Source: Candidatus Dojkabacteria bacterium (GTDB lineage Bacteria > Patescibacteriota > Dojkabacteria > SC72 > JAFGCJ01). From it: a DNA stretch of 64,000 nucleotides. The translations under genes were made by a program, and so were the position numbers. Shown here in pieces: positions 13,939-33,207 of this stretch. Under the pieces are notes generated by a model. It saw nothing but the letters and a program-made list of their open reading frames with translations. It made no database searches and was not told the origin of the DNA. Numbering within the stretch: position 1 is the first letter of the stretch; the number at the start of each line of letters is the position of its first letter. The stretch is from assembly GCA_016932785.1 (NCBI GenBank), contig JAFGCJ010000002.1:145777-209776 (forward strand). The letters run 5' to 3'.

Positions 13939-16062
13939 ATGTCACCCTTAGATAGCAAGAAGAAAATTGAAAAAAGAGATGGACAGATTGTGAATTTCGA
14001 CAGGAGCAAAATTATTGTCGCAATTCAGAAGGCAATGCGGGCCGTAGGATTCAAAGACTTCAGAAAAGCGGACACCGTAGCTACTGATGTAGAAAAAGAA
14101 TTAAAAAAAGATTACTTTGATAAAAGCAAAATTCCAACAGTCGAAAACATTCAAGATCTCGTCGAAAAATACCTTATTCTCAACCGACTTCCCGATGTTG
14201 CCAAGTCATATATTCTTTATAGAGACCTACACTCTAGAATTAGAAATATTAACGATTTTGTAGACATCGCCACCCTTACAGAGGAATATATAAACACTTC
14301 CGATTGGAAAACCAAAGAAAATTCATCAATAGATTACTCTCTTTCTGGCTTATACAACCATATCCAGAGAACTATTGGCGAAATTTACTGGCTAAATAGG
14401 ATTTTCGATGAAGAAATCCGAAAATTGAATGAAAATAATGATTTTCATATACATAAACTTGCAGCAATAAGCGCTTATTGTGCAGGCTGGGACCTGATGG
14501 ATCTGCTCGTATCAGGCTTCGGAGGCGTCCCACGGAAGCTCTCCTGCTCTCCTCCAAAGCATTTTTCCACTGCCTTATCCCAATTAGTTAACTTTCTCTT
14601 CACCCTCTCGAACGAGACCCCAGAAGGGGCCGTAGCAGTTTCAAGCCTTGATACCCTAATTGCACCTTTTATTTACTACGATAAGCTAACAGAAAAACAG
14701 GTACACCAACATATACAAGAGTTCATTTTCAATATAAACGTACCCACCAAGGTTGGCGGACAGGCCCCATTTACAAACGTAACCTTAGATCTAGAATGTC
14801 CTTCACATCTTAAAGAGGAACCCGTCGTGATCGGAGGAAAAACCATGGACAGAAAATACGGAGAATTCCAAAAAGAAATGGATATGTTTAACAAGCATTT
14901 TGCCCAAGTAATTATGGCGGGCGACAGCTCGGGGAGAGTTTTCTCTTTTCCGATTCCAACCTACAATATTACAAAAGACTTTAACTGGGACAACAAAATC
15001 CTCAATCCTATTTGGGAGATGACAGCGAAATATGGTACTCCCTACTTTGCTAATTTCGTTAACAGCGACATGCATCCCGATGATGTACGCTCTATGTGCT
15101 GCAGACTTCAAATCGACAAAAGAGAATTACAAAAAAGAGGAGGAGGCTATTTTGGAGCAAATCCTCTAACCGGAAGTATCGGCTATGTCACAATCAATTT
15201 ACCGCGTTTAGGATATCTTTACAAAGGAAAGAAAAAAGAACTGTATGAGAGGCTGGAATATCTCATGGAAAAAGCCGCTGAGAGCCTTATTATAAAGAGG
15301 AAGACCCTCGAGAAACTTACCGACCAGGGTTTATATCCATACTCAAAACATTATCTTAGAAGTGTAAAGCAGAGAACTGGAGAATACTGGGGAAATCACT
15401 TTAATACAATAGGAATTATTGGGATGAACGAATGTTGCCTGAACTACAATGGAAAGGATCTAACAACAAAGGAGGGCCAAACGTTTGCTATCGAGATGAT
15501 AGATTTTATGAATCAGAAGCTCAAGGAGTTTCAGAAAGAGCATGGTCAGATGTATAATCTTGAAGCTTCTCCAGCTGAGGGCACATCATACAGACTCGCC
15601 CGGGCTGATAAGAAAAAATACTCCGATATAATTGTCGCCAACGAAAAAGACTATCAGGAAAATGGTGCCGAACCATACTATACAAATTCAACACAACTAC
15701 CAGTTGGTTTTACAGATGACATATTCTCAGCTTTAGATTTGCAGGACGAATTACAGAGCAAATATACTGGTGGAACTGTTTTTCATGGATTTCTTGGTGA
15801 GAGGCTTCCAGACATAGCAACAACCAAAAGCCTCGTTAAGAAGATATCCAAACACTATAGACTACCCTATTTTACAATCACTCCAACATTTTCCATTTGC
15901 CCAGAAGATGGATATCTATCAGGTGAAGTATGGACCTGCCCAAAGTGCCAAGGAGAATGTGAAGTTTACTCACGTATTGTAGGAAAGATTCATCCCGTCC
16001 AAAACTGGAACGCGGGAAAGCGATCAGAATTCAAGGAAAGACGAACATTCCAATCCTGCTAA
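13939..16062 (+). CDS. nrdD: Anaerobic ribonucleoside-triphosphate reductase, paralog 2 (with N-terminal ATP-cone)
   Basis: 707 aa. The N-terminal ATP-cone is IEKRDGQIVNFDRSKI. The sequence is collinear with paralog 1 (FSFPIPTYNITKDF, MCCRLQ). The C-terminus reads CPEDG..CPKCQGEC..SRIVGKIHPVQNWNAGK. Confidence 0.9.
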   Translation: MSPLDSKKKIEKRDGQIVNFDRSKIIVAIQKAMRAVGFKDFRKADTVATDVEKELKKDYFDKSKIPTVENIQDLVEKYLILNRLPDVAKSYILYRDLHSRIRNINDFVDIATLTEEYINTSDWKTKENSSIDYSLSGLYNHIQRTIGEIYWLNRIFDEEIRKLNENNDFHIHKLAAISAYCAGWDLMDLLVSGFGGVPRKLSCSPPKHFSTALSQLVNFLFTLSNETPEGAVAVSSLDTLIAPFIYYDKLTEKQVHQHIQEFIFNINVPTKVGGQAPFTNVTLDLECPSHLKEEPVVIGGKTMDRKYGEFQKEMDMFNKHFAQVIMAGDSSGRVFSFPIPTYNITKDFNWDNKILNPIWEMTAKYGTPYFANFVNSDMHPDDVRSMCCRLQIDKRELQKRGGGYFGANPLTGSIGYVTINLPRLGYLYKGKKKELYERLEYLMEKAAESLIIKRKTLEKLTDQGLYPYSKHYLRSVKQRTGEYWGNHFNTIGIIGMNECCLNYNGKDLTTKEGQTFAIEMIDFMNQKLKEFQKEHGQMYNLEASPAEGTSYRLARADKKKYSDIIVANEKDYQENGAEPYYTNSTQLPVGFTDDIFSALDLQDELQSKYTGGTVFHGFLGERLPDIATTKSLVKKISKHYRLPYFTITPTFSICPEDGYLSGEVWTCPKCQGECEVYSRIVGKIHPVQNWNAGKRSEFKERRTFQSC

Positions 16063-16063
16063 A

Positions 16064-16771
16064 ATGAAATTCTACGGTCTAAAAAAAGTAACACTAATTG
16101 ATTATCCTGGCAAAATTGCCTGTACACTTTTTACACACGGATGTAATTTCAGATGTCCTTTCTGTCATAACCCTGAGCTTGTAATTCAAAAACCAGATAA
16201 CAAAAACTCAATAAGCAGTAATCGCGTACTAAATTTCTTATCAAAAAGAAAAGGGAAACTTGATGGAGTTGTCCTTACTGGAGGAGAGCCTCTGCTTGGA
16301 TTCGCTGATATGATACCGTTCATCAGAGAAGTCAAGAAACTTGGTTTTTTCGTTAAGATTGACACAAACGGTACAAGTCCTAGTGCTGTAGAGCAATTAA
16401 TAAAGAAGAAACTTGTGGATTTTTTTGCAGTAGATTACAAATGTACTCCTCAGAACTATGAAATAATGCATGCAAGTTCAAACGACTTTGATTCCTTCAT
16501 GAAGACACTCTCAATCATTGTTGACTCAGGAATAACACACGAAATAAGAACCACGGTAGTACGAGGTTTGCATGACGAAAACGAGATTAAAGAGATGATG
16601 CCTTTAATAAGAGGTGTTGAGAAATATGTTATCCAGAACTTTGTTCCAAGCAAAACAATTGATCCAGATTATGCCAATTTAAAAGGATTTACTCACAACG
16701 AACTTGAAGTTTTATTAAAAATAGCCAAAAGAACAGTAAAAAATACCGAGATAAGAAATGACTTCGAGTAG
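16064..16771 (+). CDS. nrdG: Anaerobic RNR activating enzyme (radical SAM)
   Basis: 235 aa. It has the CNFRCPFCHN CxxxCxxC cluster and GGEP. It starts 1 nt after the nrdD-2 stop. Confidence 0.85.
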   Translation: MKFYGLKKVTLIDYPGKIACTLFTHGCNFRCPFCHNPELVIQKPDNKNSISSNRVLNFLSKRKGKLDGVVLTGGEPLLGFADMIPFIREVKKLGFFVKIDTNGTSPSAVEQLIKKKLVDFFAVDYKCTPQNYEIMHASSNDFDSFMKTLSIIVDSGITHEIRTTVVRGLHDENEIKEMMPLIRGVEKYVIQNFVPSKTIDPDYANLKGFTHNELEVLLKIAKRTVKNTEIRNDFE

Positions 16772-16788
16772 AATACATCCTCAAGACT

Positions 16789-17880
16789 CTATAAACTCAT
16801 TGCCAACAATATTCCAGCCAATCCTGCCCCTATCGCAATGAAATAAAATCTCATCACAATCTTTTCCTGGCTCCAACCAAGAACTTCAAAGTGATGGTGT
16901 ATTGGAGCCATTTTAAATATCTTCTTCAGGAGAAAAACAGAAGAAAGCCATTGAAGAATGCTGGAAAGAACCTCCGCTACAAAAATAAATCCTATTATAG
17001 GCGTAATCAAGGATCGTTCTGTCAGCATTGCAACATATACGAACAGCATACCTAGAGGAATAGTTCCTATATCTCCCATTTCAACACGCGCAGGAGGAAT
17101 ATTAAAGTAATAAAACGTTAGTTCTGATCCAACAATTAGCATGCAAAAGAGAGAAACACTTTCATAACCTAACATGGCGGCAAGAATACCCATAAGTGCA
17201 AAACCTATTGCGTGGGTGCCAGCCGAGAGAGCATCGAGCCCGTCGGTAACAGAAAATCCCATGGAAAAAAGCACCAATAAACATGAGTTCACAACAACAG
17301 AAAACCATCCCAGATCGACTATGCCAACGATTGGAATCCACATCTCTCCTCCAAACCCAAGATAGAAAAGGTAAGCTATCAAAACTGATAGCAGAATCTC
17401 AAAAAAAAGCTTCTGTGAAGCCCTCATTCCAGTCTGATAGCTACCTGCTTCATCAACCGAGCCAGTAAAGACCCTGGCAGGCCAAGTAATATAGCGAAAC
17501 AAAGTCCAAGTAAAAAAGTTACGGTATATTATCGGATTAACTTTTTCATAAACTTCTACATTGTTTCTTTTCTCTCTAGAAAAAACATTCATGAAATCGT
17601 CCACAAAACCAAGTCCCCCGCCCAAACCAAAGATTATAACGGGAATATATCCAAGTTTCTGGTAAAGACCAAGAACAAAATAAAGCGATATAACAGAGAT
17701 TAAGATCATTAATCCTCCCATGACTGGCACCCCAATCTTTTTTTTACGTTCCTTTATCACCTGATCTACTTCGTCTTTTCCTTTCTGACGAAATTTCAGA
17801 CTGTAAAGAATGTTTATTATCGCTGGTGCAATAAAGAAGGTTGCCACCAGTGAGAGTAATATATACTGAATCTGTTTCAT
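16789..17880 (-). CDS. mraY: Phospho-N-acetylmuramoyl-pentapeptide transferase MraY
   Basis: 363 aa and polytopic. Motifs include VPVMGG, DDFMNV, TDGLDAL and APIHHHFE. Confidence 0.9.
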   Translation of the reverse strand: MKQIQYILLSLVATFFIAPAIINILYSLKFRQKGKDEVDQVIKERKKKIGVPVMGGLMILISVISLYFVLGLYQKLGYIPVIIFGLGGGLGFVDDFMNVFSREKRNNVEVYEKVNPIIYRNFFTWTLFRYITWPARVFTGSVDEAGSYQTGMRASQKLFFEILLSVLIAYLFYLGFGGEMWIPIVGIVDLGWFSVVVNSCLLVLFSMGFSVTDGLDALSAGTHAIGFALMGILAAMLGYESVSLFCMLIVGSELTFYYFNIPPARVEMGDIGTIPLGMLFVYVAMLTERSLITPIIGFIFVAEVLSSILQWLSSVFLLKKIFKMAPIHHHFEVLGWSQEKIVMRFYFIAIGAGLAGILLAMSL

Positions 17881-17885
17881 AATTT

Positions 17886-19370
17886 CTATATATTATATAT
17901 ATCAGGTAGATCGTTCTCCAGCACAACTACCGATGGGATGAGATTTCTCGCAAGTATCTCATCATAACAGGATGCTATATCCTTTATAAGAACGATATTT
18001 TCATCAGGATAACCTGCTTTTTTCAGGCCACTTCTAAGACCTCTTATTCTGTCATTATCTTCTTCTTTTCCAAGCAGAATTACTAAATTGATATCATCAG
18101 TGACAAGAGATCCTAGCTTTTCGTGTACCTTATATTCGATATCTCCTAACTCAAAAATCCCAGGGGTAACAAGAACCTTGTAAGAAGCCTCAAATAGCTT
18201 CAACGTCTCAAGGGTTTGTTTAAAACTTTCAGGATTTGAGCTATATCCGTTATTTATAGTAACTATACCCGTACCTTGATCTATTACCTGCATTCTGCTT
18301 TCAATAGGCTCCAGATCAGCCACAGCACTGACAATATCATTTGCAGATACTCCAAACTCTTTAGCAACTGCTATTGCTCCAAGTATATTGGTAATATTTC
18401 CTGTCCCAATGAGTTTAGTTTGAGCTTCGACAGTTTCAGATCCCAACTTTATCTGAAATCTCGTTCCATCCTTGGTCATTTCCATTATTCTTCCATCATA
18501 TCTTCCCGCACTGTTAAGTCCATATCCAATAACCTCGAGTCGGCCCAAATCTTTTTCTCTATCGAAAATTTCCTTAACATGCCGATTGGATACATTCAAA
18601 AATGCCTTTGAGCCGTCACTAAGTCCCTCAAGAATCTCAGATTTGGCTTTAATTGTATTTTCAAGCGAGCCAAATTTCTCGTAATGCATAGTTGTAATTC
18701 CCGTTAAAACAGCAAAGTCCGGAGGAAACGCGCGACACAGTTCTTCTATCTCTCCAATACAATAGGCTCCCATCTCAACCAAGAAGACCTCAATCTCTTC
18801 GTTCAAATATTCCATTACATCAGATACAAATCCGAGTTTAAACTTTGCCTGGGCTATACCAAAAAGAGTATTATAGCTTTTCGGGGTAGCATATACTTTG
18901 AATTTTTTCTCTAAAAGTACAGAAATGAAATGCTTCGTCGACGTTTTTCCAAAACTACCTGTTAATCCGATAACCTTCATACCCATTTTCTTAAGACTCT
19001 GAACCCTCTTTCTGGACATCCTTATTACAATGTTCCTATTAATTTTTTCACGTGGCGACACAATGTAGTAAGCAATAATAATATAGACCCACGGTGCAAC
19101 CAGGAAAAACCCCGTAAAAATAGCTAAAACAGCCCAAAGTTTCAGCAGACCACAAATCAAACCCAAAAAAACGAAAACCAGTACTGACACAACAAATAAA
19201 AGTTTCGCCCTAAATGTCCAATCCAGTCTTCTTATCTTTTCAACATTCCAAGGGACAGGATTACGAATTATGAGACGAAGAAAGCGACCAACAACATACT
19301 CCTCCGACTGAAATAAATATAAAAATGATCTAAGGAAAAAGAGATTTTTAAGAATTTCTATTATTTTCAA
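17886..19370 (-). CDS. murF: Mur ligase (MurF-like UDP-MurNAc-tripeptide--D-Ala-D-Ala ligase) with N-terminal membrane segment
   Basis: 494 aa. The P-loop GLTGSFGKTSTK lies at about residue 135. It is preceded by hydrophobic stretches (LLFVVSVLVFVFLGLICGLL, VLAIFTGFFLVAPWVYIIIAYYIV). The gene lies next to mraY and ddl. Confidence 0.8.
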   Translation of the reverse strand: MKIIEILKNLFFLRSFLYLFQSEEYVVGRFLRLIIRNPVPWNVEKIRRLDWTFRAKLLFVVSVLVFVFLGLICGLLKLWAVLAIFTGFFLVAPWVYIIIAYYIVSPREKINRNIVIRMSRKRVQSLKKMGMKVIGLTGSFGKTSTKHFISVLLEKKFKVYATPKSYNTLFGIAQAKFKLGFVSDVMEYLNEEIEVFLVEMGAYCIGEIEELCRAFPPDFAVLTGITTMHYEKFGSLENTIKAKSEILEGLSDGSKAFLNVSNRHVKEIFDREKDLGRLEVIGYGLNSAGRYDGRIMEMTKDGTRFQIKLGSETVEAQTKLIGTGNITNILGAIAVAKEFGVSANDIVSAVADLEPIESRMQVIDQGTGIVTINNGYSSNPESFKQTLETLKLFEASYKVLVTPGIFELGDIEYKVHEKLGSLVTDDINLVILLGKEEDNDRIRGLRSGLKKAGYPDENIVLIKDIASCYDEILARNLIPSVVVLENDLPDIYNI

Positions 19371-20112
19371 TAAATTCCTTGACTAACTTAAAAAATATCT
19401 CTGGATAGTCCATAAAGGCAAAGTGTCCCGCACCCTTAATAATTTTGAGTTTAGATCCCTCTATTTCACGTGACATTTCAACACCATCAATGAGAGGAGT
19501 CTGAGAATCAGCATCACCCCAAATCAATAATGTAGGTATTTTAATTTCTTTTAAAATATGCCTTATGTCTTCACTGATTATTTTTCGAAAACTTTCCTTC
19601 ATCTCTCCAGACTGCAACTCATCTTCTGAGGCAATGAGGGATAGAAATTTCTCTCTTCTAGCAACATTTCTTCCAAATCCACCCAGCAATCCAAGTATAA
19701 ACTTTCCTATTTTTGCAAGAATAACCTTAAGAGTGACGCCCAGATAGAATCTTTTATAACCGGCACTTCCCGTAAGGACAAGCTCTTTCGCCAAGTGATA
19801 TTTAGCCTGCAAAATCAAGGCAACCTTACCTCCCAGAGAATGACCAAGAATTATCGGCCTTTCGATTTCTAGTTCTTCAAGAAATTTCTGAACAAGTTCT
19901 GCATAATACTCTGAATCTATGATCTCCCCTGGTATATCGCTCCCGCCAAATCCTGGTAAAGAAATAACAAAAACCTGAAGGCCCATACTAACAAGATCAG
20001 GAACATACTGAGCCCATGGCTCAGGTCCACCCCAGCCATGGATGAGAATTAACCTCTCACCTTGACCAAACACATCATATTGAACGTTTAGACCTTTGAA
20101 TTCAAAAATCAT
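19348..20112 (-). CDS. Alpha/beta-fold hydrolase
   Basis: 254 aa. It has the HGWGG oxyanion region, the nucleophile elbow GHSLGG and a late GAGHF His motif. It overlaps ddl (1 nt) and murF (23 nt). Confidence 0.75.
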   Translation of the reverse strand: MIFEFKGLNVQYDVFGQGERLILIHGWGGPEPWAQYVPDLVSMGLQVFVISLPGFGGSDIPGEIIDSEYYAELVQKFLEELEIERPIILGHSLGGKVALILQAKYHLAKELVLTGSAGYKRFYLGVTLKVILAKIGKFILGLLGGFGRNVARREKFLSLIASEDELQSGEMKESFRKIISEDIRHILKEIKIPTLLIWGDADSQTPLIDGVEMSREIEGSKLKIIKGAGHFAFMDYPEIFFKLVKEFIENNRNS

Positions 20113-21194
20113 TATCTTGGCCCCACTTTTTTCTCGAACGCTTCGATAGATAGTTCAATAATCCTGTCAAAAAAATCCCCCGGTCCCATTCCTGCTTCAG
20201 CTGCCTGATGAAAAACCATAGTAGAAGGAGTTACACCCGGCAATGTATTCGGTTCTAAAATTATAAGCTTTCCATCTTTCCAGAAAGCATCAATTCTGCT
20301 ATAAACACTTAGTTCCATAGCCTTGTACGCTTTAACAAATTCAGCTTTTACTTTCTCAACAGTACCCTCGTCCATTCCAGTCGGAGGAGTAATCATTGAA
20401 GCATCACCTGGAAGAAACTTCTCTTCCACCGTAAGGAAATCACCTTTTTTGGGTGTTTCAGTTGGGGTCAAAGCCTCAGGATTATCATTTCCAATAATTG
20501 TACAGGTAATCTCCTGAGCATCAATAAACTCCTCAATCAAAATGAGAATATCCCAATTCAAAGCCTCATCAATTGCCTTCCTAAGCTCCTTCTGATCTTT
20601 CACCTTGGCAACGGCTGTGCTGCATCCCTCTCGGCTGGGTTTAACTATCATGGGATAGTTAAATTCACCTTCGATCGTCTTAATTATTGTCTCAGGATCA
20701 TCCTCATAATCTTCTTGAATTACCGGCATATGCTTTGGAACGTTAAGTCCTGCACCCTTAAGAACCTTTCTCTGATAATACTTATCCATTCCAATTGCTG
20801 CACCGATTATCCCGGGACCATTATATGGAATACCCAGAAACTCCAATAAGCCTTGAAGTGCTCCATCTTCTACAAACTTCCCATGAAGACCAAGAAATGC
20901 TATCTCGATATGATCCGGCAATTCCTGATAGGTAAGATTTTGTGCCCCCTGATTCTCAAGCTCTCCTTGGATGTCTTCTGTCGTATTCATCCAAAGCAGC
21001 GCCTCATTGATAATCCAAAATTTCAAGTCAGTACTGACAAAAATCGGAATCTTCTCATACTTTGAGTCATCCAAACTATTGTAAATATGTCTCCCACTTT
21101 CAAGCGAGATCTCACGCTCTGACGAAGGTCCCCCCATCATTACTCCGACCTTTATCTTGCTATTTTCATCCTTCAATTTTTCTGACAAAGTCAT
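20112..21194 (-). CDS. ddl: D-alanine--D-alanine ligase
   Basis: 360 aa ATP-grasp protein. Motifs include VGVMMGGPSSEREISLESG, LHGKFVEDGALQGLLE and LEPNTLPGVTPSSM. Confidence 0.9.
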   Translation of the reverse strand: MTLSEKLKDENSKIKVGVMMGGPSSEREISLESGRHIYNSLDDSKYEKIPIFVSTDLKFWIINEALLWMNTTEDIQGELENQGAQNLTYQELPDHIEIAFLGLHGKFVEDGALQGLLEFLGIPYNGPGIIGAAIGMDKYYQRKVLKGAGLNVPKHMPVIQEDYEDDPETIIKTIEGEFNYPMIVKPSREGCSTAVAKVKDQKELRKAIDEALNWDILILIEEFIDAQEITCTIIGNDNPEALTPTETPKKGDFLTVEEKFLPGDASMITPPTGMDEGTVEKVKAEFVKAYKAMELSVYSRIDAFWKDGKLIILEPNTLPGVTPSTMVFHQAAEAGMGPGDFFDRIIELSIEAFEKKVGPR

Positions 21195-21211: not shown

Positions 21212-22402
21212 TTATTGCAAAGTTCCTTTTTTCTTCGAATGCTCATCTACTGCCAGATTTATTATCATGGTAATCAGACCTCGAGGCGATATTCCTGCCT
21301 TGACCTTTCCTCCTTTAATGGCAGAAGACTTACCTCCAATGCCTTTTGTTCCACCAAACTTTAGTTCAGATCGAGATGCTTGCTGGAACACATACGATGA
21401 TGGAACCATTATAGTACCAGTATGAGGTTCACTAACATAAACTTCATTATCGACGACAAACCCGTCTACACGCCCATAACCTTTTATACCAAGAGTCTCA
21501 TAAACTCTAACAGCAGTTTCTTTTACTTTTTCCACCATTTCGTCAGAAACTCTAGGAGGTGTGTGATACTGAGCCTTTCCAGGCATATACTTACTCTCGT
21601 AGGTGTGAATTTCGCCTTCAAATTCGACTTCCGTTGGCGTCATTGCAGAAGGATTTTTATTCCCAAGCACAACACACATAAACTCAACACCATCAACAAA
21701 CTCCTCTGCCAAAATTTCCTTATCCCATTTAAAGGCTTCTTCCACAGCTTTCTCGAGGCTATTCCTATCCTTAGCAAATGATACACCGACACTGGATCCT
21801 TCTCTTGTCGGTTTCACAACAACAGGGTAATTCAAATTAGACTCAATATTTTTTACAATTTCATTATTTTTCTTCTCGTCTTCCCAATCATTGGAATAAA
21901 AACAGACATCCTTGGGAACGGTAACCCCAATTCTAGAAAGAATCTGCTTTGTGACACGCTTGTGCATACAAACGGCCGATGGAAGAATTCCTGAGCCGGT
22001 ATAAGGTATCTTAAGAAGTTCAAGCAGCCCTTGTATAGCTCCGTCCTCACCATATTTCCCCAGTAGAGCAATAAACATTACATCTACAATTTCGTTCAGT
22101 TTTTCATACTTGATCTCCTCGGCTTCTCCAAGACGGGACTCGACATCTTCGGTTTTGTTCTGAATTACAAGCTTATCTGGAATCCTATAAACCCTGGCAT
22201 CTGACGCCATATATAAAGGAATCGCGTCAAATTGGCTCCTATCCACAAGCGAATACACATACCTACCGGTAGCAAGAGAAATCTCCTTCTCTGCTGATAA
22301 TCCGCCAAAAATAACCCCTACTTTTATCTTTTCATTACTATCTCCCATAACTACTAGGTTAGATATTATATCAAAAGCCTGTTTGGGACAACTGTATATC
22401 AT
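21212..22402 (-). CDS. Ddl-like ATP-grasp ligase, divergent paralog with C-terminal extension
   Basis: 396 aa. It is collinear with ddl (VGVIFGGLSAEKEISLATG, LLGKYGEDGAIQGLLE), but the Mg/ATP loop reads SEPHTGTIMVPSS. It carries an extra tail of about 45 aa rich in Gly and Lys. The true start may be the internal M at 22348. Confidence 0.75.
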   Translation of the reverse strand: MIYSCPKQAFDIISNLVVMGDSNEKIKVGVIFGGLSAEKEISLATGRYVYSLVDRSQFDAIPLYMASDARVYRIPDKLVIQNKTEDVESRLGEAEEIKYEKLNEIVDVMFIALLGKYGEDGAIQGLLELLKIPYTGSGILPSAVCMHKRVTKQILSRIGVTVPKDVCFYSNDWEDEKKNNEIVKNIESNLNYPVVVKPTREGSSVGVSFAKDRNSLEKAVEEAFKWDKEILAEEFVDGVEFMCVVLGNKNPSAMTPTEVEFEGEIHTYESKYMPGKAQYHTPPRVSDEMVEKVKETAVRVYETLGIKGYGRVDGFVVDNEVYVSEPHTGTIMVPSSYVFQQASRSELKFGGTKGIGGKSSAIKGGKVKAGISPRGLITMIINLAVDEHSKKKGTLQ

Positions 22403-22435: not shown

Positions 22436-22984
22436 TTATTCCAAAACAGTTTTCATCTTTCTACGGATTCTGTGAAGTTTGGTGGCCACATTTGACTCAG
22501 AAAGCCCCATCCTCTCAGAAATATCACGATTACTTAATCTTTCAAAATACTTAAAATACAGGAGATACTGATCCTCGCTTTCAAATGAAGCAATTATATT
22601 AAAAAGCTCCTTTTCTCTTTCATTATGTAGTACATCCTCCTCAAGGTCAGAAACCGCCATTTTTTCAGTTCCAATTTCCTCCTTCAAGCTAGTTCTTTTA
22701 TCCTTCTTATCACTGCGATAATAGTCGTAAACAGTATTTCTGGCTATCCGAAAAATCCAACATCCAAAACTAACTCCCTTCCACTTGAACTGGCTTATCT
22801 TCGTCATTGCCTTTTCGAAAACCTTTGAAGTAAGATCCTCTGCTATCTCCCTGTCGGAGACTTTTTTCAAAATGAAGCTCTCAACCTTATCTTTATAAAT
22901 TACATAAAGGTCTCCGAAGTGTTTCCTGTTTTTCTGAGCTCTTCGAACAAGCTTTTTTTCTTTTTCAATATCTTTATTAATCAT
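22436..22984 (-). CDS. RNA polymerase sigma-70 family (ECF-type) sigma factor
   Basis: 182 aa. It has a region 2-like segment (FGDLYVIYKDKVESFILKK ... WIFRIARNTVYDYYR) and the region 4 HTH (LSNRDISERMGLSESNVATKLHRIRRKM). Confidence 0.8.
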   Translation of the reverse strand: MINKDIEKEKKLVRRAQKNRKHFGDLYVIYKDKVESFILKKVSDREIAEDLTSKVFEKAMTKISQFKWKGVSFGCWIFRIARNTVYDYYRSDKKDKRTSLKEEIGTEKMAVSDLEEDVLHNEREKELFNIIASFESEDQYLLYFKYFERLSNRDISERMGLSESNVATKLHRIRRKMKTVLE

Positions 22985-23769
22985 GAAACTCTTTGAATAA
23001 ATCTTTCGACTTCAATTTCTGTTCTAATAAGGCTATCTTGAATTTTCCTTGTTTTGATGCCCAAACTTGCGAGAGTAGCGCAACTCATAGCTATCGGCAT
23101 ATACATAAACTCACCGCGTTGCAAGGCATAAAACCTGAAGCTTCTAACCGAATCTGTTTGATTCAAGTTTCTAATCTTTACATCCATGGCAGTACCATTT
23201 TCAGATTCAGAAAAATCGACTATCTGAAAATTAGCAATTTTCTCATTGCCCACTGTAACTACTTTCCGGCCCGCCTTATCAGATAAATTCAGTGACCCAG
23301 CTGCATTAGACGGAAGAACCACAATATCTTTTGTATTACTACAAAGCAGTTTCTCCAAGTATCTAAGCTTTAGGTCAGCATTAACCAAAATAGATATCTC
23401 TGGTTTCAGTATATCCAGCCAATAAGAAGCTATATCCTTTTTGAAAGTATTCATCTGAAGAATTGTCCACGTAAAATTCCTTCTTCCAAAAGCAAGTCTC
23501 AGTATATTTCTAATTAGTAGTAACAACCACTGTGCAGAAGTATGATGAACATCCTCCTCTCCAAGAATAGACAATGGAATTGAAAAGTCCCAAAAAGGTC
23601 TTTCAAGCTGCCACCTGACAACATATTCAGAAAGCATCATCTGCCCCAGAATTTCTCCTGTAAGCTTGGTTCCATGGATTCCAGCAACAACAATAATTTT
23701 CATCCCATGCTTCTTTATAGACCACCGCGAGAGAAGCTTGAGAATATGCCTCAAAACTTTTCTTAACAT
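22981..23769 (-). CDS. Truncated MurF-like protein with degenerate P-loop (probable pseudoenzyme)
   Basis: 262 aa. The N-terminus (ILKLLSRWSIKKHGMKIIVVAGIHGTKLTGEILG ... FSIPLSILG) mimics the MurF N-terminus, P-loop and NxxGxPLT region. GxxGKT is replaced by GIHGTK, and the C-terminal Mur ligase domain is absent. An ATGA overlap links it to the sigma gene. Confidence 0.55.
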   Translation of the reverse strand: MLRKVLRHILKLLSRWSIKKHGMKIIVVAGIHGTKLTGEILGQMMLSEYVVRWQLERPFWDFSIPLSILGEEDVHHTSAQWLLLLIRNILRLAFGRRNFTWTILQMNTFKKDIASYWLDILKPEISILVNADLKLRYLEKLLCSNTKDIVVLPSNAAGSLNLSDKAGRKVVTVGNEKIANFQIVDFSESENGTAMDVKIRNLNQTDSVRSFRFYALQRGEFMYMPIAMSCATLASLGIKTRKIQDSLIRTEIEVERFIQRVS

Positions 23770-23816: not shown

Positions 23817-25598
23817 TTATTCCGGAGCAATTCCAAGTTCCATAGCAATATTTTTATAGATATTTACCCAGACAGGTACCGCAGTCAAAGCTGCATAGGT
23901 ACTTGTCTGAGGTTCTTCCAACCTTACAATCATTATCATTTTGGCTCCGTGCACCGGAGAAAACCCAACAAACGTTGTGTTTGTCCTATCTTCGTAATAT
24001 CCATATTCATCTTCTAAAGGAATCTGAGCCGTACCGGTTTTCCCGGCTATACTGTAGTTTGAAAGGGTCTGCCTAAAGTATAAGCTTCCGTCCCCCTCTT
24101 TTACGACGGTCTCCATCATACTTTGAACCTCTCTCGCTGTTTCAACAGAAATCGGTTGACTTGCAACCTCGGGCTCTATTTCTATATGTTCTTTATCATC
24201 GTAAAGCTCCTTAACCAGATATGGACGCATCCTGGTTCCATCGTTAGCAATAGTAGAGACAGCTGATACGATTTGAAGTGGCGTGGCAGAAATCATTTGT
24301 CCAAAAGAAGACGATGCTAAGTCAAGCTCTGTCCAGTAACCCAGTGGTTTAAGATAACTTGTAGCTTCGTCCTGTAGTCCAATACCGACAAATTCACCAA
24401 TTCCAAACTCTTGAAGATAATAGTAGTTTCTGTCGATTCCAACCTCAAGACCTATTTTGATAGCACAGACATTATTTGAGTATTTTAGTACATCTCTAGG
24501 CTTAAGATCTCCATCAGGAAGCTTATCCCAAGTATATAAAGTCTTATCATAGATCTTTATATACCCAGTATCGTCAGTACATACAGTGTCTGGGGTAATC
24601 CTTTCATCTTCCAGAGCCATAGATAGCGTAAGAACTTTGTTTACCGATCCATACTCATAAACATCTGATACAGCTTTGTTTTTGAAATTTTCTGGATTAT
24701 CTTCCTGCCAATAAAAATTCGGGTCGTAGCTTGGATAGTTTGCCATAGCAATAATCTCTCCGGTTTTAGGATCGAGAACTATAGCTGAGCCACTTTTAGC
24801 CTTGTGCTCTTTAACCCCCTCTTCAAGATACTTCTCAACTCTTGCCTGAATACTAGGGACTATTGTTAAAACAATATTCTTACCTTCTCTCGGAACAACT
24901 GGATCGTACTCTCCAGTCATAATAACGTTGCCTTTAGAGTCCTTCTCTTCATACTTGAAACCTTCCTGACCCAAGAGATCACCGGCATAATAGCCCTCCA
25001 AACCATACCTCCCAACATCGTTTCCGTCCTCATCTTTTCCAACAAACCCCAGGATATGGCTGGCTAGACGACCGTCAGGGTAAATTCGTTTTTCTTCTTT
25101 TTCAAAATGTATTCCGAATAAGGCCTTCTGTTCTATTTCTTTCTTAACCTCATTAGTAACAGCATGCTTAAGCGGAACATATCTAAATCCCTCTACCAAA
25201 GCTTCATCCATCTCATCCGGATCAATATCAAGTATCTCAGAAAGAGTGTTAACAAATTTATCTCTATTTTCTTCAAACTGTTTTCTATCTTGTTCCTCAG
25301 CACTAACTGAAGCATAAACGCCCCAGACAGGTTCATCTACCGCAAGAACGGATCCATCGGCTGTATATATCGTCCCTCTAGATGTTGGAAGTCTACTTTC
25401 CTCAACGACCTGAGCTCTCGCAAGATCACTCAATCTATCATGCTCAATTATCTGCCACCTATACATCTGAAATATCAGCCCACCAACAAATGCTGGGAAT
25501 ATTACAAGAACAAGTACCAAATATCTCCAGTTGAAATCCCTGGATTTGCTTTTATTCTTTTCCCGTCCAGAATCACGAGATAAAATTGACCTATTCAT
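23817..25598 (-). CDS. ftsI: Penicillin-binding protein 2/FtsI-type transpeptidase
   Basis: 593 aa with an N-terminal TM segment. It has SxxK (GSVNKV) and KTGTA. It sits directly after ftsL in the dcw cluster. Confidence 0.9.
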   Translation of the reverse strand: MNRSILSRDSGREKNKSKSRDFNWRYLVLVLVIFPAFVGGLIFQMYRWQIIEHDRLSDLARAQVVEESRLPTSRGTIYTADGSVLAVDEPVWGVYASVSAEEQDRKQFEENRDKFVNTLSEILDIDPDEMDEALVEGFRYVPLKHAVTNEVKKEIEQKALFGIHFEKEEKRIYPDGRLASHILGFVGKDEDGNDVGRYGLEGYYAGDLLGQEGFKYEEKDSKGNVIMTGEYDPVVPREGKNIVLTIVPSIQARVEKYLEEGVKEHKAKSGSAIVLDPKTGEIIAMANYPSYDPNFYWQEDNPENFKNKAVSDVYEYGSVNKVLTLSMALEDERITPDTVCTDDTGYIKIYDKTLYTWDKLPDGDLKPRDVLKYSNNVCAIKIGLEVGIDRNYYYLQEFGIGEFVGIGLQDEATSYLKPLGYWTELDLASSSFGQMISATPLQIVSAVSTIANDGTRMRPYLVKELYDDKEHIEIEPEVASQPISVETAREVQSMMETVVKEGDGSLYFRQTLSNYSIAGKTGTAQIPLEDEYGYYEDRTNTTFVGFSPVHGAKMIMIVRLEEPQTSTYAALTAVPVWVNIYKNIAMELGIAPE

Positions 25599-25989
25599 TT
25601 CCAGAATTATAACTCAGGTCAGCAGTTGTAGACGTAGGTTCCAGATATATTACCTTTTCAGCTCTCTTCATTTCTAAATCTTTTTCCGACCTTGCTTTTA
25701 TTATAGACATTGAAGAATACTTCGCTATTTCATGTTCTATCTTTCTATTTTCTTCGATAAGCATTTCCTTTTCCTGATTTAGTCTCCTAAGTTCCTTACC
25801 TCTAGGACTCAGAACAGATACAATAACAAGCTGCACAACACAAAATGCAAGAACAACAGCTACAAAAACACCGACTGATAATGTAGGAACCGAAAAACCT
25901 TTCTTTAAATTGTTAGCGGAGGTCTCATCCATTTTTCCCCTATTTTGGAGCATGAACTTAAGTTTCCTCCTTAGACAGGAAATCTTCAT
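25591..25989 (-). CDS. ftsL: FtsL-like cell division protein
   Basis: 132 aa. It has a single TM segment (VGVFVAVVLAFCVVQLVIVSVL) followed by a coiled-coil-like segment. It lies between rsmH and ftsI. Confidence 0.6.
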   Translation of the reverse strand: MKISCLRRKLKFMLQNRGKMDETSANNLKKGFSVPTLSVGVFVAVVLAFCVVQLVIVSVLSPRGKELRRLNQEKEMLIEENRKIEHEIAKYSSMSIIKARSEKDLEMKRAEKVIYLEPTSTTADLSYNSGNE

Positions 25990-26006: not shown

Positions 26007-26936
26007 TTAATTTTTTCTCACAGCCCTAAGCTTCGCACTGCGAGCTCTAGGGTTTGATTCAATTTCGGTTTTTTCCGGTACCTCAGGCTTTCTCGTAATA
26101 ACCTCAACTTCTCCTTTCGTCTCCCATTCAGAAAACACATTCTTAACAATCCTATCCTCCAGAGAGTGATAGGAGACAACTACAACAGTACACCCTCGCT
26201 TAGCCAACGAAAGGGCCGAATTTAACCCTTGACTTAGGCTCAACAACTCATCATTAACTGCTATTCGCAAGGCTTGAAAAGTACGCCTTGCAGGATGTTT
26301 CGAGCCCTTTCGGTAGCCGGCCGGTACATTCTTACGGATAATTTCAACTAATTCACCTGAAGTCATATCTTTATAATCATTTTCATTCAACCAATGCTTC
26401 ACTCCTCTAGCTATTCTTTTCGCGAATCTCTCCTCACCATATTCCTGGATTATCTTCTCCAGCTGTTTCGCTCCGGCAACTTTTAGTAAGTCCGTAGCTC
26501 TAACACCCAGAGATTTATCCATTCTCATATCAAGTACTTCATTCCTTAGATAGCTAAAACCCCTCAATCCATTATCAATTTGCCTGGAGGACATTCCAAG
26601 ATCATAGACAATTCCATCAACTTTCTTGAGCTTCAGGTCATTAATTATTTCTTTAATATCTCTGAAATTACCTTTAACAAGATGCCAATTACCACTTTTA
26701 AGTTTCACCTTATACCTGCTAGTAACAAAATCTATTGAGTCCTGATCCAAATCTATACTTACCAACGTGCCGTCTGGACTCAATTTTCTAAGTATTTCAA
26801 TACTGTAACCACCGTCCCCCAACGTACAATCAACGTAAACACCATCGGGTTTGATTTCAAGATATTCAAGAATTTTTTTTAAAAGAACTGGTTTATGTAT
26901 TACTCTTTGTTCTGTTTCAGCCTGCTTTTTGTTCAT
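26007..26936 (-). CDS. rsmH: 16S rRNA (cytosine1402-N4)-methyltransferase RsmH
   Basis: 309 aa. Motifs include HKPVLL, DCTLGDGGYS, DLGMSS and SYHSLEDR. Confidence 0.95.
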   Translation of the reverse strand: MNKKQAETEQRVIHKPVLLKKILEYLEIKPDGVYVDCTLGDGGYSIEILRKLSPDGTLVSIDLDQDSIDFVTSRYKVKLKSGNWHLVKGNFRDIKEIINDLKLKKVDGIVYDLGMSSRQIDNGLRGFSYLRNEVLDMRMDKSLGVRATDLLKVAGAKQLEKIIQEYGEERFAKRIARGVKHWLNENDYKDMTSGELVEIIRKNVPAGYRKGSKHPARRTFQALRIAVNDELLSLSQGLNSALSLAKRGCTVVVVSYHSLEDRIVKNVFSEWETKGEVEVITRKPEVPEKTEIESNPRARSAKLRAVRKN

Positions 26937-27376
26937 TCCTGTTGTCCACGAATTACTTCCGCAATTTCCTGAGCTATATCTTCCCCGTTTTCCTTCACAT
27001 ACTCCTCATGCTCACGCCACTGTTCATCGCTCCAAATCTCAACCCAATTAACTAGCCCGAGAAAAACAGCTTCCTTGCTTAACCCCGAAAATTCTACTAA
27101 CCCTTTGGGAACAACGAATCTTCCTTGAGTATCAAGATCAACCTCGTGAGCGCCAGCAAGCAAAAACCTTCCAGCATCCCGAATTTTTCTATCAATAAAG
27201 GTACCTTGTGTTATCTCCTTGGTTATCACTTCCCATCTTTTCTGATCGACTGCTATAAGACACCCCTCATATCCCCTAGTAACAATAAGTTTGTCTCCCA
27301 TCTCATTGCGAAACTGCTTTGGAAAGGCCACACGATTTTTCTCCCCAACCTTGCTTTTATATTGACCTATTATCAT
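26933..27376 (-). CDS. mraZ: Transcriptional regulator MraZ
   Basis: 147 aa. It has two SpoVT/AbrB-like repeats with the DxxxR-type motifs (GEKNRVAFPKQFR and DTQGRFVVPKGL). It is the first gene of the dcw cluster. Confidence 0.9.
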   Translation of the reverse strand: MIIGQYKSKVGEKNRVAFPKQFRNEMGDKLIVTRGYEGCLIAVDQKRWEVITKEITQGTFIDRKIRDAGRFLLAGAHEVDLDTQGRFVVPKGLVEFSGLSKEAVFLGLVNWVEIWSDEQWREHEEYVKENGEDIAQEIAEVIRGQQE

Positions 27377-27423
27377 TTTTTAGTATTTTCGGGAATTTTA
27401 TTTTATAGAGCTATTCTATCATC

Positions 27424-27453
27424 ATTCACCACCATTCACCACTATTCACCACC
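27424..27453 (-). promoter_or_regulatory. Three 10-bp direct repeats (GGTGGTGAAT / AGTGGTGAAT / GGTGGTGAAT), candidate MraZ operator
   Basis: The plus strand reads attcaccacc-attcaccact-attcaccacc. The repeats lie 48-77 nt upstream of the mraZ start. A TATAAA -10-like hexamer (27402-27407, minus strand) lies between the repeats and the gene. Confidence 0.6.
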
Positions 27454-27716
27454 CAGAGTAGCACAGGAATATAGGACTTGTCAAATCCCAAAACAAGATA
27501 AGAAAATAGCCGAAGACAACAGGCCTTATAAGAAGAAAAACCTTCCGCTAACAGCAAAATATGGACAATAATTTATTCGTTACAAAACCGATTAAAAAAC
27601 GTATAGAAATAAGGATGCTAGGAAAACCCGTAAATTATGGTTATATTCTATTTAATATCAATACAGGACATAAATTAATAGACTATAACTAATGAATTAT
27701 ATATAATGAACCAGAA

Positions 27717-30744: not shown

Positions 30745-33207
30745 CTAACCGTCTAGCTTACCTTTAACAGCTCTCTCAATATTCTTTATTATTTTCTCGC
30801 GTAATGTATCAATATCGTCTTCCTTAAGTGTTTTCTTGTTACTCTGCATTGTTACAGTAACCGTCGTCTTTTTCTTTCCTGAATTTTTCTTATCAATATA
30901 TATGTCCTTACAGGTAACACTGCGTACCAGATTATCCTTACTTTCAATCCCCAGAATTGCTTCACGAATTGCCTTATACTGAACGTCAGAATCAGTAATA
31001 AAGCAGAAATCATGTTCCACAGATGGGTACCTTGACGGTTCAATGTAATCAGGAAAATCCTGTATATATTGATTAATACCGTCCAATCTAATCTCGAAGG
31101 CACTTGTTCCCTCAGGCACATTCATCTCTCCTGTTGTATCAAAGTCAACCTGTCCAATAATCCCGGCGAGATCTCCTTCGACATAAACAAACGCCGTTCT
31201 ACCAGGATGATAAGAATTCAAAGCATATTCAATCCACTCCGGCATCTTTCCTGGAGTTGCCTTTCCAAGCTGTTCAAAATCCCAGCTGGAAATATTCAAT
31301 GCCTTCAACAAAGACTCAAGATAAAGCTTTGCATGATAAAAAGATTCCGAATGAGCCAAGCACAGATGAACAGGTTCCTCTGGCAGCTGACCTTTTGGCA
31401 ACTTCTTGCCGTGGACCATATCTATTTCAAAAAGTGTGACCTCTTGCCTATTCTTAAAATTCAAGGCAACCTTTTCCAACACAGAAGGAAGAAGAACTGG
31501 ACGCATGTACTCAAGATCAGGAGAAAGAGCATTGACCAATCTATAATATCCTTCTAGCCCTAGACCACACTTTTTATACAAATCTTCTCCTACAAACGCG
31601 TATGTATAAATCTCGTTAGCGCCAAGACTCTTTAGAGCGTCTTTCACTCTGATTCTTTTTTCTCGTGTTTTGTTATGAGATACAGGATGGATTTTTCTTG
31701 TAGGTAAAGTGGTTTCCAACCTATCGTAGCCATAAATCCTAACGATCTCCTCAGCTATATCTTCTGGTATATTCAAATCTTTTCTAAACGTCGGAATCCT
31801 GACCGAGAAAATCTTCGACTTTTCGTCTTGATCCACAGCCAGGCACAATCTATGAAGGATATCTTTCATTTCCTTATCAGAAATATCCGCTCCGATTCGT
31901 TTTCTTAAGTAGTCAGGATCAACAGAAACAGAGTGCTCTTTTACCGGTTCCTTATAATCATCATAGATTTGCGAGGCTAGAGTACCCCCAGAAAGCTCCT
32001 CTATCATCTGTATTCCCTTATACAAAACAGGCTCACAAAGGTTAGGATCAAGTCCCTTGGAAAATCGTGTCACAGCCTCAGAGAAGATACCAGTCTTCAT
32101 AGATGTTCTGCGAATATTGTACATGTCAAGATTTTCTACCTGAAAAACAACTTTTCTTGTATCATCAGAAATTTCAGTATCTTTTCCTCCCATGACTCCC
32201 GCTATACCGATAGGATTTGCACTATCAGCGATAACAATGGTGTCATCATAAAGTTCCACAAGTTGACCATCTATTGTTGTGATTTTCTCACCTGCTTTAG
32301 CCAATCTTATAACAATATTTACTCCGTCTTTGAAGCCTGGGTCCTTAGTAGTTATTTTATCGTAATCAAATGCATGATTAGGCTGTCCCACCTCAAGCAT
32401 AAGATAATTAGAAATATCGACTATATTATTCACAGGATGTATTCCCATCTTGGAGAGACGTATCTGCATCCATTTAGGGGAAGGCTTCACATCAACATTT
32501 TCGATGACAACACAGGTATATCTTGCACATAGAGCTTCAGCATTATTTTCAAGATTTATCTTGTACTTATTTTTGGTAGCTTTGGGTTTAATAAGATCAG
32601 GGTTATACAACCACTCCGGAGGATCAAACTTTGTCGCCTGAATTGCAGATACTTCTCGAGCAATACCAACAACAGAGAAGGTATCCGGTCTATGAGTAAG
32701 AGCTTTATTCTTAATTTCAAGTATTGGGTCCACAAGATCCATAACCTGTTCAAATGCAGAACCTGTTTTGGTTTCCTGAGGCACAGTGTAAACAGTAGTA
32801 TGATCATAATTAAGGCCAATCTCCCTTCCCGAAGGAATCATACCTTCGGAATCAACACCCTTGATATTTGTTTTTTCCACCTTTACTGGGTCTCCGGTCT
32901 CGGCAGATTCCGGAACAATAAGGCCAGGCTTAAGGTAAGGTACCTTGTCGCCAACCTTAACCGGACACTTCTGTACAACAACTGTCTTTTTTGACTTCCC
33001 AACATCTATAACTAAAACCAAAAGGTTGCTGCTTTCGGGATGATCTTTAACTTCAAGAACCTTTGCCACAATAATACCTTTGTAGTTATCACCAAAATTT
33101 TCGATACTTTCAGCTTCGGTAAGAGAAACAGATACTCTCTCCTTAAGCTCTTCTGGAGGAAGCTTTATCTCTGTAAATTCTTTTACCCAATTTAGTGATA
33201 TTTTCAT
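30745..33207 (-). CDS. pheT: Phenylalanine--tRNA ligase beta subunit
   Basis: 820 aa. It begins MKISLNWVKEF and has the N-terminal tRNA-binding OB fold. The B3/4 and B5 regions and the C-terminal FDX-ACB-like domain are present. The stop of pheS overlaps its start. Confidence 0.9.
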   Translation of the reverse strand: MKISLNWVKEFTEIKLPPEELKERVSVSLTEAESIENFGDNYKGIIVAKVLEVKDHPESSNLLVLVIDVGKSKKTVVVQKCPVKVGDKVPYLKPGLIVPESAETGDPVKVEKTNIKGVDSEGMIPSGREIGLNYDHTTVYTVPQETKTGSAFEQVMDLVDPILEIKNKALTHRPDTFSVVGIAREVSAIQATKFDPPEWLYNPDLIKPKATKNKYKINLENNAEALCARYTCVVIENVDVKPSPKWMQIRLSKMGIHPVNNIVDISNYLMLEVGQPNHAFDYDKITTKDPGFKDGVNIVIRLAKAGEKITTIDGQLVELYDDTIVIADSANPIGIAGVMGGKDTEISDDTRKVVFQVENLDMYNIRRTSMKTGIFSEAVTRFSKGLDPNLCEPVLYKGIQMIEELSGGTLASQIYDDYKEPVKEHSVSVDPDYLRKRIGADISDKEMKDILHRLCLAVDQDEKSKIFSVRIPTFRKDLNIPEDIAEEIVRIYGYDRLETTLPTRKIHPVSHNKTREKRIRVKDALKSLGANEIYTYAFVGEDLYKKCGLGLEGYYRLVNALSPDLEYMRPVLLPSVLEKVALNFKNRQEVTLFEIDMVHGKKLPKGQLPEEPVHLCLAHSESFYHAKLYLESLLKALNISSWDFEQLGKATPGKMPEWIEYALNSYHPGRTAFVYVEGDLAGIIGQVDFDTTGEMNVPEGTSAFEIRLDGINQYIQDFPDYIEPSRYPSVEHDFCFITDSDVQYKAIREAILGIESKDNLVRSVTCKDIYIDKKNSGKKKTTVTVTMQSNKKTLKEDDIDTLREKIIKNIERAVKGKLDG

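Follow-up and report, generated by a model that had tools for sequence, protein, structure and literature searches.

Sigma factors with extracytoplasmic function (ECF) are normally kept in check by anti-sigma factors that are helical and mostly membrane-bound. In Bacillus subtilis, the pairs SpoIIAB-SigF and RsbW-SigB have a soluble anti-sigma factor with a nucleotide-binding fold, which is encoded just upstream of its sigma factor and translated in a coupled manner with it. Both SpoIIAB and RsbW are GHKL kinases acting on group 3 sigma factors, and the gene of an anti-anti-sigma factor lies further upstream. In the same bacterium, spoIIGA-sigE-sigG, encoding a membrane protease and two group 3 sporulation sigma factors, lie beside the ftsZ end of the cluster for cell division and the cell wall (dcw), the most conserved gene cluster of bacteria. 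The present work deals with a 64-kb stretch of a Candidatus Dojkabacteria genome (the window, meaning the whole stretch of DNA that was analyzed), in which the gene of an ECF-type sigma factor is directly preceded, inside the dcw cluster, by an open reading frame (ORF) of 262 aa, designated here as X. This ORF was found to be homologous to the peptidoglycan ligase MurF, and a conserved functional X-sigma module, with X as a catalytically dead MurF paralogue, was very probable from the results obtained.

The X-sigma pair is similar to ECF sigma/anti-sigma pairs such as SigW-RsiW and SigE-ChrR in that an ECF-type sigma factor is coupled to one conserved non-sigma partner gene. Nevertheless, X is located upstream and not downstream of the sigma gene, and has a Rossmann-like Mur ligase fold instead of a helical anti-sigma domain. 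The class I anti-sigma factors (ASD/ZAS) are helical, often contain the motif HxxxCxxC and usually have a membrane span; X carries neither a zinc motif nor a membrane segment and was not assigned to this class. With SpoIIAB-SigF and RsbW-SigB it shares the partner-then-sigma order, the coupled translation and a soluble partner derived from a nucleotide-binding enzyme fold, but differs in the Mur ligase fold, the degenerate P-loop, the ECF-type sigma factor and the lack of a third conserved gene. As in spoIIGA-sigE-sigG, the sigma gene is found beside division and cell-wall genes, with a dedicated regulator (a putative one in the case of X) directly upstream; however, the X-sigma pair sits between ftsI and murE or ddl, and its partner protein is a dead ligase. 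Sigma genes next to dcw genes are not unprecedented. The literature search yielded no description of a gene pair between ftsI and murE in which a dead ligase accompanies an ECF-type sigma factor, and the main text of the ECF reclassification paper makes no mention of Mur ligases or candidate phyla.

A Mur ligase fold associated with a bacterial-type transcription machine is present in PAP11, the MurE-like subunit of the plastid RNA polymerase, which binds the beta' clamp toe via inserts of its C-terminal domain (PMC11561172). Its likeness to X is an analogy only, since PAP11 keeps all three Mur domains, is eukaryotic and nuclear-encoded, and originated independently from MurE and not from MurF.

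X Is Homologous to MurF

The gene of X (22981-23769, - strand) was located between ftsI (23817-25598, - strand; a penicillin-binding protein (PBP) transpeptidase with the Pfam domains PBP_dimer and Transpeptidase) and the sigma gene (22436-22984, - strand), which is followed by the first of two ddl genes (21212-22402, - strand, 396 aa). The translated ORF starts with MLRKVLRHILKLLSRWSIKKHGMKIIVVAGIHGTKLTGE...FWDFSIPLSILGEE, and an identical protein has been deposited as a hypothetical protein of Candidatus Dojkabacteria bacterium. Since positions 22981-22984 of the + strand read tcat, and hence ATGA on the - strand, the stop codon of X and the start codon of the sigma gene overlap by 4 nt, an arrangement consistent with translational coupling. 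The sigma factor (182 aa, sigma2 and sigma4 domains only) belongs to the ECF type (group 4) of the sigma-70 family, as it matched Sigma70_r2 (PF04542, 54.4 bits, E=1e-14) and Sigma70_r4_2 (PF08281, 38.9 bits, E=7e-10) and scored 92.7 bits on the sigma70-ECF model TIGR02937, for which the cutoff is 42.9.

The relationship of X with MurF was not apparent from simple searches and needed profile-profile and fold comparison to be shown. No Pfam family matched X at E<=1, including PF02875 and PF08245, and the best match among the NCBIfam models was MurE NF001126 (E=0.084, 11.4 bits, cutoff 373), so that no Mur family threshold was reached. A sequence search of the PDB chains retrieved spurious SH2-domain matches only (E>0.4), and the profile built from 13 close X homologues gave one weak match there, to MurE (E=0.13). 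BLASTP of X against the MurF of the window itself aligned the N-terminal 68 residues only (E=0.004).

The same 13-sequence profile was run against 1.84 billion representative proteins, and 676 proteins were obtained at E<=1e-3, 155 of them at E<=1e-10. These fell into two length classes, of 230-300 aa and 400-450 aa. The long class carried the canonical ITGSxGKT(S/T)TKE P-loop and the YNNExGxPL loop, and one of its members, P0103, scored as MurF on TIGR01143 (298.7 bits, above the cutoff). Among the long-class relatives, proteins from Moranbacteria and Moraniibacteriota are named MurF, and Campbellbacteria and "Patescibacteria group" bacteria were the sources of others. When 43 sequences of the X family were compared by hhalign with 28 MurF sequences of the candidate phyla radiation (CPR), the probability was ~100% (E=5e-39), and residues 1-254 of X aligned to columns 8-280 of the 440-column MurF profile, that is, to the N-terminal helix and the central domain. 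In this alignment X ends where the GRM motif of the MurF C-terminal domain starts.

Furthermore, an AlphaFold2 model of X, produced from the 13-sequence alignment, reached a mean predicted local distance difference test (pLDDT) of 84.3 and a predicted template modeling score (pTM) of 0.84. The Foldseek search of the PDB with this model gave 120 matches at E<=1e-3, and the 50 best were almost all Mur ligases, with MurF 4qf5_B in first place (E=3.9e-11, template modeling (TM) score 0.68, query-normalised). The model, the Foldseek matches and the hhalign comparison all placed in X the central ATP-binding domain fold of the Mur ligases (MurC/D/E/F). These results demonstrated that X is homologous to MurF. 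The form of MurF found in Patescibacteria, without the N-terminal domain, has the same N-terminal helix, central domain and order of secondary structure elements as X, and both share the strand KH/KY-P-x-I-I-x-x-G, R52 with the PLxILG loop, and W81. X is unlike MurF in the absence of the C-terminal domain and in failing the Pfam and NCBIfam thresholds.

X Lacks the Catalytic Features of the Mur Ligases

Sequences of the short (X-like, 118) and the long (MurF, 31) forms were compared column by column. The P-loop lysine was present in 31/31 of the long forms versus 10/118 of the short ones. In X, the P-loop position reads G30-I-H-G33-T34-K35-L-T37-G-E39 (23653-23682, - strand), where the CPR MurF proteins have G-S-V-G-K-T-S-T-K-E; Lys and Thr are thus swapped in this relic with respect to GxxGKT(S/T). 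The counterpart of the MurF loop YNNExGxPLxILG is F59-W-D-F-S-I-P-L-S-I-L-G70 (23560-23595, - strand). The Asn of the MurF loop (N59), conserved in 31/31 long forms, was essentially absent from the short ones, and the Gly following the YNN loop (G63), also present in all 31 MurF sequences, was a Ser in 91/118 short forms. The Mg-binding Glu was found in every long form (31/31), while the short forms had Glu in 55, Gln in 29 and Asn in 15 sequences; in the subfamily of the window's X this position (E105) is an invariant Gln. The carbamylated Lys was conserved in 28 of the 31 MurF sequences versus 14 of the 118 short ones, and the Asn of the LNxDD motif in 31/31 versus 27/118, X having LPSN aligned there. 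At the equivalents of H134 and E147/K148, X showed a gap or non-matching residues. Altogether, from the 13 MurF-invariant columns in the stretch covered by X, only the structural residues G30, G33, W81 and G174 were retained, and K, N, G, E, D, H, E(K), N and D were gone.

The C-terminal amino-acid-binding domain (PF02875, Mur_ligase_C) is wholly missing from X. Since this domain and every polar catalytic residue have been lost, X cannot be an ATP-dependent amino-acid ligase; judged by its sequence, it lacks all the features by which catalysis is recognized in the Mur ligase family. X is predicted to be soluble because it contains no hydrophobic segment (maximum KD19 1.26). The original prediction had described a MurF-like N-terminus, a GxxGKT(S/T) motif replaced by GIHGTKLT and a missing Mur ligase C-terminal domain. 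All three descriptions were borne out: the P-loop replacement by the window sequence itself, the missing domain by a profile alignment that ends at the GRM motif and by the lack of any Mur_ligase_C match, and the MurF-like N-terminus by hhalign (E=5e-39) and Foldseek (MurF, E=3.9e-11), in place of the absence of Mur homology on profile search that had been named as counterevidence.

The possibility that X is one half of a split MurF was also considered and rejected, since the genome has an intact MurF in the same cluster and the catalytic residues are absent from X. This genuine murF (17886-19370, - strand), with an intact GSFGKTST P-loop and both central and C-terminal domains (Mur_ligase_M, 114 bits; Mur_ligase_C; TIGR01143, 193.5 bits), was the only other Mur ligase match in the window. 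X would rather have arisen by duplication of a Patescibacteria-type MurF, an enzyme already devoid of the usual N-terminal domain; the N-terminal helix and the central nucleotide-binding domain would have been retained, and the C-terminal domain and the polar catalytic residues dropped.

X Belongs to a Conserved Family

The 13 close homologues of X (236-272 aa, 39-48% identity) share 35 invariant columns, including the motifs HGTKxTGE (invariant or nearly so), RxQLExxFWDFSxPLxILG and NxxWxxxQxxT. Over 98 members, which are 16-30% identical to the X of the window, conservation of at least 90% was found for R3, L10, K20, H21, G30, E39, R52, P65, L66, G70, W81, W117 and P123. The residues H21, R53, W60, S63 and W117 are conserved specifically in X and differ from those of MurF. 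The most conserved stretch of the family is FWDFSIPLSILG (59-70), in which the MurF-invariant Asn and Gly have been replaced; W60, D61, P65 and G70 were invariant in the alignment A3, narrower than the 98-sequence one. On the other hand, the P-loop region of the wider family varies (GWYGTE, GDGQTS, GENSSS and others).

The family, with proteins of ~250-295 aa, is represented by full-length homologues of the same size in dozens of metagenomes, and these alignments indicate that it is conserved and under purifying selection. Its members are named "hypothetical" in public sources, apart from one JGI entry with a COG-style MurF name. For the taxonomic breadth, the basis is a pair of named proteins from Dojkabacteria, a single locus with Saccharibacteria in its title, and the CPR names given to the nearest full-length MurF relatives. 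Additionally, in one protein of 286 aa, P0085, the N-terminus contains a P-loop similar to that of MinD/ParA and precedes a segment resembling X (profile positions 4-132 at residues 97-225); this protein may be a fusion or an assembly chimera.

The strict conservation of HGTKxTGE and RxQLExxFWDFSxPLxILG in 13 sequences of 39-48% identity exceeds what the maintenance of a fold would need, and would suit a protein that is still an enzyme or binds nucleotides with a rearranged P-loop, at least in Dojkabacteria, although with a chemistry unlike that of MurF. Such a residual activity was considered improbable: the motif is not common to the wider family, whose sigma partner is the same; X is devoid of the Mg ligands, the carbamylated Lys and the complete C-terminal domain; and the threshold of no Mur family was reached.

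X and the Sigma Gene Are Linked in All Informative Loci

To collect the loci containing X, proteins were looked up by exact match, and species-representative genomes and metagenome contigs were scanned once each; the loci were then annotated with the window proteins as queries. X was followed directly, on the same strand, by a sigma gene of one orthogroup in 29/29 loci with enough downstream DNA, namely the window, L001-L010, L012, L014-L017, L019-L029 and L033-L035. The loci L011, L013 and L018 were uninformative, as they end at most 160 nt past the stop codon of X. Regions 2 and 4 of the sigma factor were strikingly conserved across these loci, and in ~20/29 of them the sigma start overlapped the 3' end of X by 1-17 nt, the commonest overlaps being ATGA and ATGAATAA. 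The original prediction had correctly placed the ORF between ftsI and the ddl genes, with an ATGA overlap with the sigma-70/ECF gene, and had proposed that the conservation of the pair be checked in related genomes; the pair proved to be conserved in every informative locus, and in roughly two out of three of these the stop codon overlapped the start codon. In two other respects that prediction had to be revised. A sigma factor in the dcw cluster had been called unusual, while a sigma gene is regularly found at that position in this lineage and in related ones, and the ORF had been called truncated, a word suggestive of a recent local event, while the short form is a widespread conserved family (13 homologues, 35 invariant columns).

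The lack of a Pfam match and the name "hypothetical protein" in all sources could have fitted a decaying pseudogene or an artefact of ORF calling, with the ATGA overlap due to chance. This explanation was excluded for practical purposes by the full-length homologues of the same size with invariant motifs in dozens of metagenomes, by the confident AlphaFold2 model and by the synteny in 29/29 loci.

The order ftsI-(murA)-X-sigma-murE was the usual one in many lineages, and in the Dojkabacteria-like loci the sigma gene was followed by ddl or a MraY-like gene. Nevertheless, the pair was inverted with respect to the flanking murE/murA/ftsI genes in L007 and L034, had no ftsI in front in L029, was followed by no Mur gene in L003 and, in L033, had a beta-lactamase-like gene on one side and cofD on the other, with no dcw gene nearby. 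The X-sigma pair is mobile as a unit. Sigma paralogues with 34-39% identity (L030, L031) had no X adjoining, and P0251, a protein of 252 aa with a detectable intact Mur_ligase_M domain (L036), had no sigma neighbor.

This genomic company bears on another explanation, in which X serves the cytoplasmic Mur pathway as a scaffold or a subunit without catalytic activity, docking on MurE, MurF or MraY, and the sigma gene merely shares its operon. Pseudoenzymes often regulate their active relatives, and X derives from MurF; the pair is usually found among ftsI, murA, murE, murC and murB, with murE starting right after the sigma gene in many loci, and Mur ligases assemble together, a MurE-MurF complex (8f5d) being among the Foldseek matches of X. 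However, the adjacency of X to the sigma gene is stricter than to any Mur gene, as the ddl of the window, L003 and L033 illustrate, X and sigma invert as a unit, and the overlap of stop and start codons points to a fixed stoichiometry with the sigma factor specifically. We therefore regarded the scaffold explanation as unlikely.

Some minor features of these loci were also recorded. A second, divergent MraY-like glycosyltransferase of 339-340 aa is encoded in L001 (11067-12086), L002 (9459-10481), L004 (11294-12316) and L005 (7307-8329). The divergent gene lies just after the sigma gene in L002, L004 and L005; L002 has a normal mraY as well, and its divergent copy remained below the cutoff of TIGR00445 (88.8 bits, cutoff 192). 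Two related sigma genes without X (L031, 1529-2080; L032, 317-868) contained in-frame stop codons under table 11, which suggests a lineage with a reassigned stop codon.

Expression Signals of the X-Sigma Pair

The best sigma-70-like site of the region (10/12), TTGATA-17-TAAAAT (23804-23776, - strand), ends 6 nt before the start codon of X. A TAnAAT hexamer (TAAAAT or TAGAAT) ends 5-7 nt before the X start in 7/7 close loci, including L001-L005 and L009. Among the X genes in general, TAnAAT ended 3-14 nt before the start codon in 13/26, compared with 3% of random positions. These sites suggest a leaderless or nearly leaderless X-sigma transcript, produced from a housekeeping-type promoter inside the dcw cluster.

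The apparent expression from a promoter of this type would also be compatible with X assisting the sigma factor or RNA polymerase as a positive co-factor, such as a stabilizer, a chaperone or an accessory subunit, and not an inhibitor. The same linkage of X and sigma speaks for this role as for that of a regulator, and chains of PAP11, which shows that a bacterial-type RNA polymerase can recruit a Mur ligase fold (PMC11561172), were among the Foldseek matches of X (8r6s_Q, 9epc_Q and 8xzv_J, E=5e-9 to 1e-7). Nevertheless, PAP11 contacts the beta' clamp toe via inserts in the C-terminal domain, which X does not have, and the best match to PAP11 (E=5.4e-9) was no better than those to ordinary Mur ligases and is informative at the level of the fold only. 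A positive co-factor was hence judged as unlikely as a scaffold of the Mur pathway.

X as a Putative Partner of the Sigma Factor

The reading that we favor, plausible although not quite probable, is that X is a direct regulator of the sigma factor; the binding, the direction of the regulation, the signal and the regulon are what we infer from the genomic data. In this proposal, X and sigma would be co-transcribed, probably from their own housekeeping-type promoter and as a nearly leaderless mRNA, and the sigma factor would be translated by coupling to the stop codon of X; a fixed X:sigma ratio would be expected from this coupling. Soluble X would then bind the ECF-type sigma factor in the cytoplasm and control its access to RNA polymerase. 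As an anti-sigma-like partner or an adaptor, it would belong to a module that lacks an adjoining anti-sigma gene of the conventional kind. In fact, no anti-sigma family was present among the annotations of the genes neighboring the X-sigma pair in the loci examined, and the genes right after sigma were ddl (window), murE, a MraY-like gene, nrdG or cofD, none of them annotated with an anti-sigma family.

The activity of the sigma factor might thereby be tied to the state of the cytoplasmic synthesis of peptidoglycan precursors, the link being either a ligand bound in the cleft of the relic active site or a contact of X with MurE, MurF or MraY. A precursor-related signal would be the probable one, because the surviving conserved residues cluster where the substrate loop used to be, and in view of the genes that usually surround the pair; that X itself senses a peptidoglycan precursor, as the original prediction had speculated for a sensory or anti-sigma-like partner, appears rather unlikely. 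A broader version of the proposal, in which the X family is an unrecognized class of cytoplasmic sigma regulators derived from MurF and spread across many lineages of Patescibacteria, reporting the state of precursor synthesis via the relic cleft or via contacts with active Mur enzymes to a sigma factor that tunes cell-wall and division genes, is considered doubtful.

Several observations weigh against X as a regulator of the sigma factor. The association is one of genomic linkage (29/29 loci), and ~30 pairs are too few for a coevolution analysis. X, whose Mur fold is of the alpha/beta type and which has neither a zinc motif nor a Pfam match, does not resemble the known anti-sigma domains, and most ECF/anti-sigma pairs have the sigma gene first, while here the partner precedes it. 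X does not have the domains by which the real MurF holds UDP and the incoming amino acid, and a nucleotide ligand shared by the whole family is unlikely because its P-loop region varies. Regarding the target genes, neither a regulon nor an ECF-type promoter was found. Upstream of X there were only housekeeping-like -10 hexamers, and upstream of mraZ the main promoter of the dcw cluster is sigma-70-like (TTGACA with an extended -10) and is followed by three GTGGTGA boxes. Finally, murE directly follows sigma in many lineages, and thus the common membership with Mur genes could reflect a role in the Mur pathway and not the control of the sigma factor.

If X does regulate the sigma factor, a dead peptidoglycan ligase would have given rise to a soluble partner, a novel way of controlling ECF sigma factors, and the cytoplasmic synthesis of cell-wall precursors would be directly connected to transcription. 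It would also parallel, in bacteria, the MurE-like subunit found in the RNA polymerase of chloroplasts, itself unexplained. With the present results, a sizeable family of "hypothetical" proteins gains a name and a testable hypothesis. The genomes of Patescibacteria are very small and encode few regulators. The X-sigma pair is likely to be important for growth or division, since it is strictly conserved in the dcw cluster of such small, regulator-poor genomes.

Other Genes of the Cluster and the Window

The order of the cluster in the window is mraZ-rsmH-ftsL-ftsI-X-sigma-ddl-ddl-hydrolase-murF-mraY, with mraZ at 26933-27376, rsmH at 26007-26936, the ftsL-like gene at 25591-25989 and mraY at 16789-17880. 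The intergenic region between mraZ and a PBP1 gene (27377-27716) contains the promoter and the three GTGGTGA boxes mentioned above, spaced by ~10 nt, and is conserved in L001-L005; the boxes presumably serve as operator repeats for MraZ, with a sequence specific to this lineage. Between sigma and murF there is a tandem pair of ddl genes, the second of them at 20112-21194 (- strand, 360 aa), and then an alpha/beta hydrolase gene (19348-20112, - strand), with ends that overlap or abut; the same layout was found in L002.

In the genuine MurF (494 aa, TTG start), the usual MurF domain 1 is replaced by an N-terminal extension of ~105 aa. Its residues 1-55 are conserved with the orthologue of L002, and strongly hydrophobic stretches follow at ~49-78 and 80-106, which suggests that this MurF is membrane-anchored.

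Additionally, two NrdD paralogues (anaerobic ribonucleotide reductase) are encoded in tandem at 12128-13927 (+ strand, 599 aa) and 13939-16062 (+ strand, 707 aa), with nrdG at 16064-16771, and a tandem pair of NrdD-like ORFs was also present in L001 and L003. PheS (33204-35036, - strand), with 610 aa, is about twice the usual size, and its N-terminal piece matches the C-terminal portion of the model for alanyl-tRNA synthetase (PF01411, residues 23-99).

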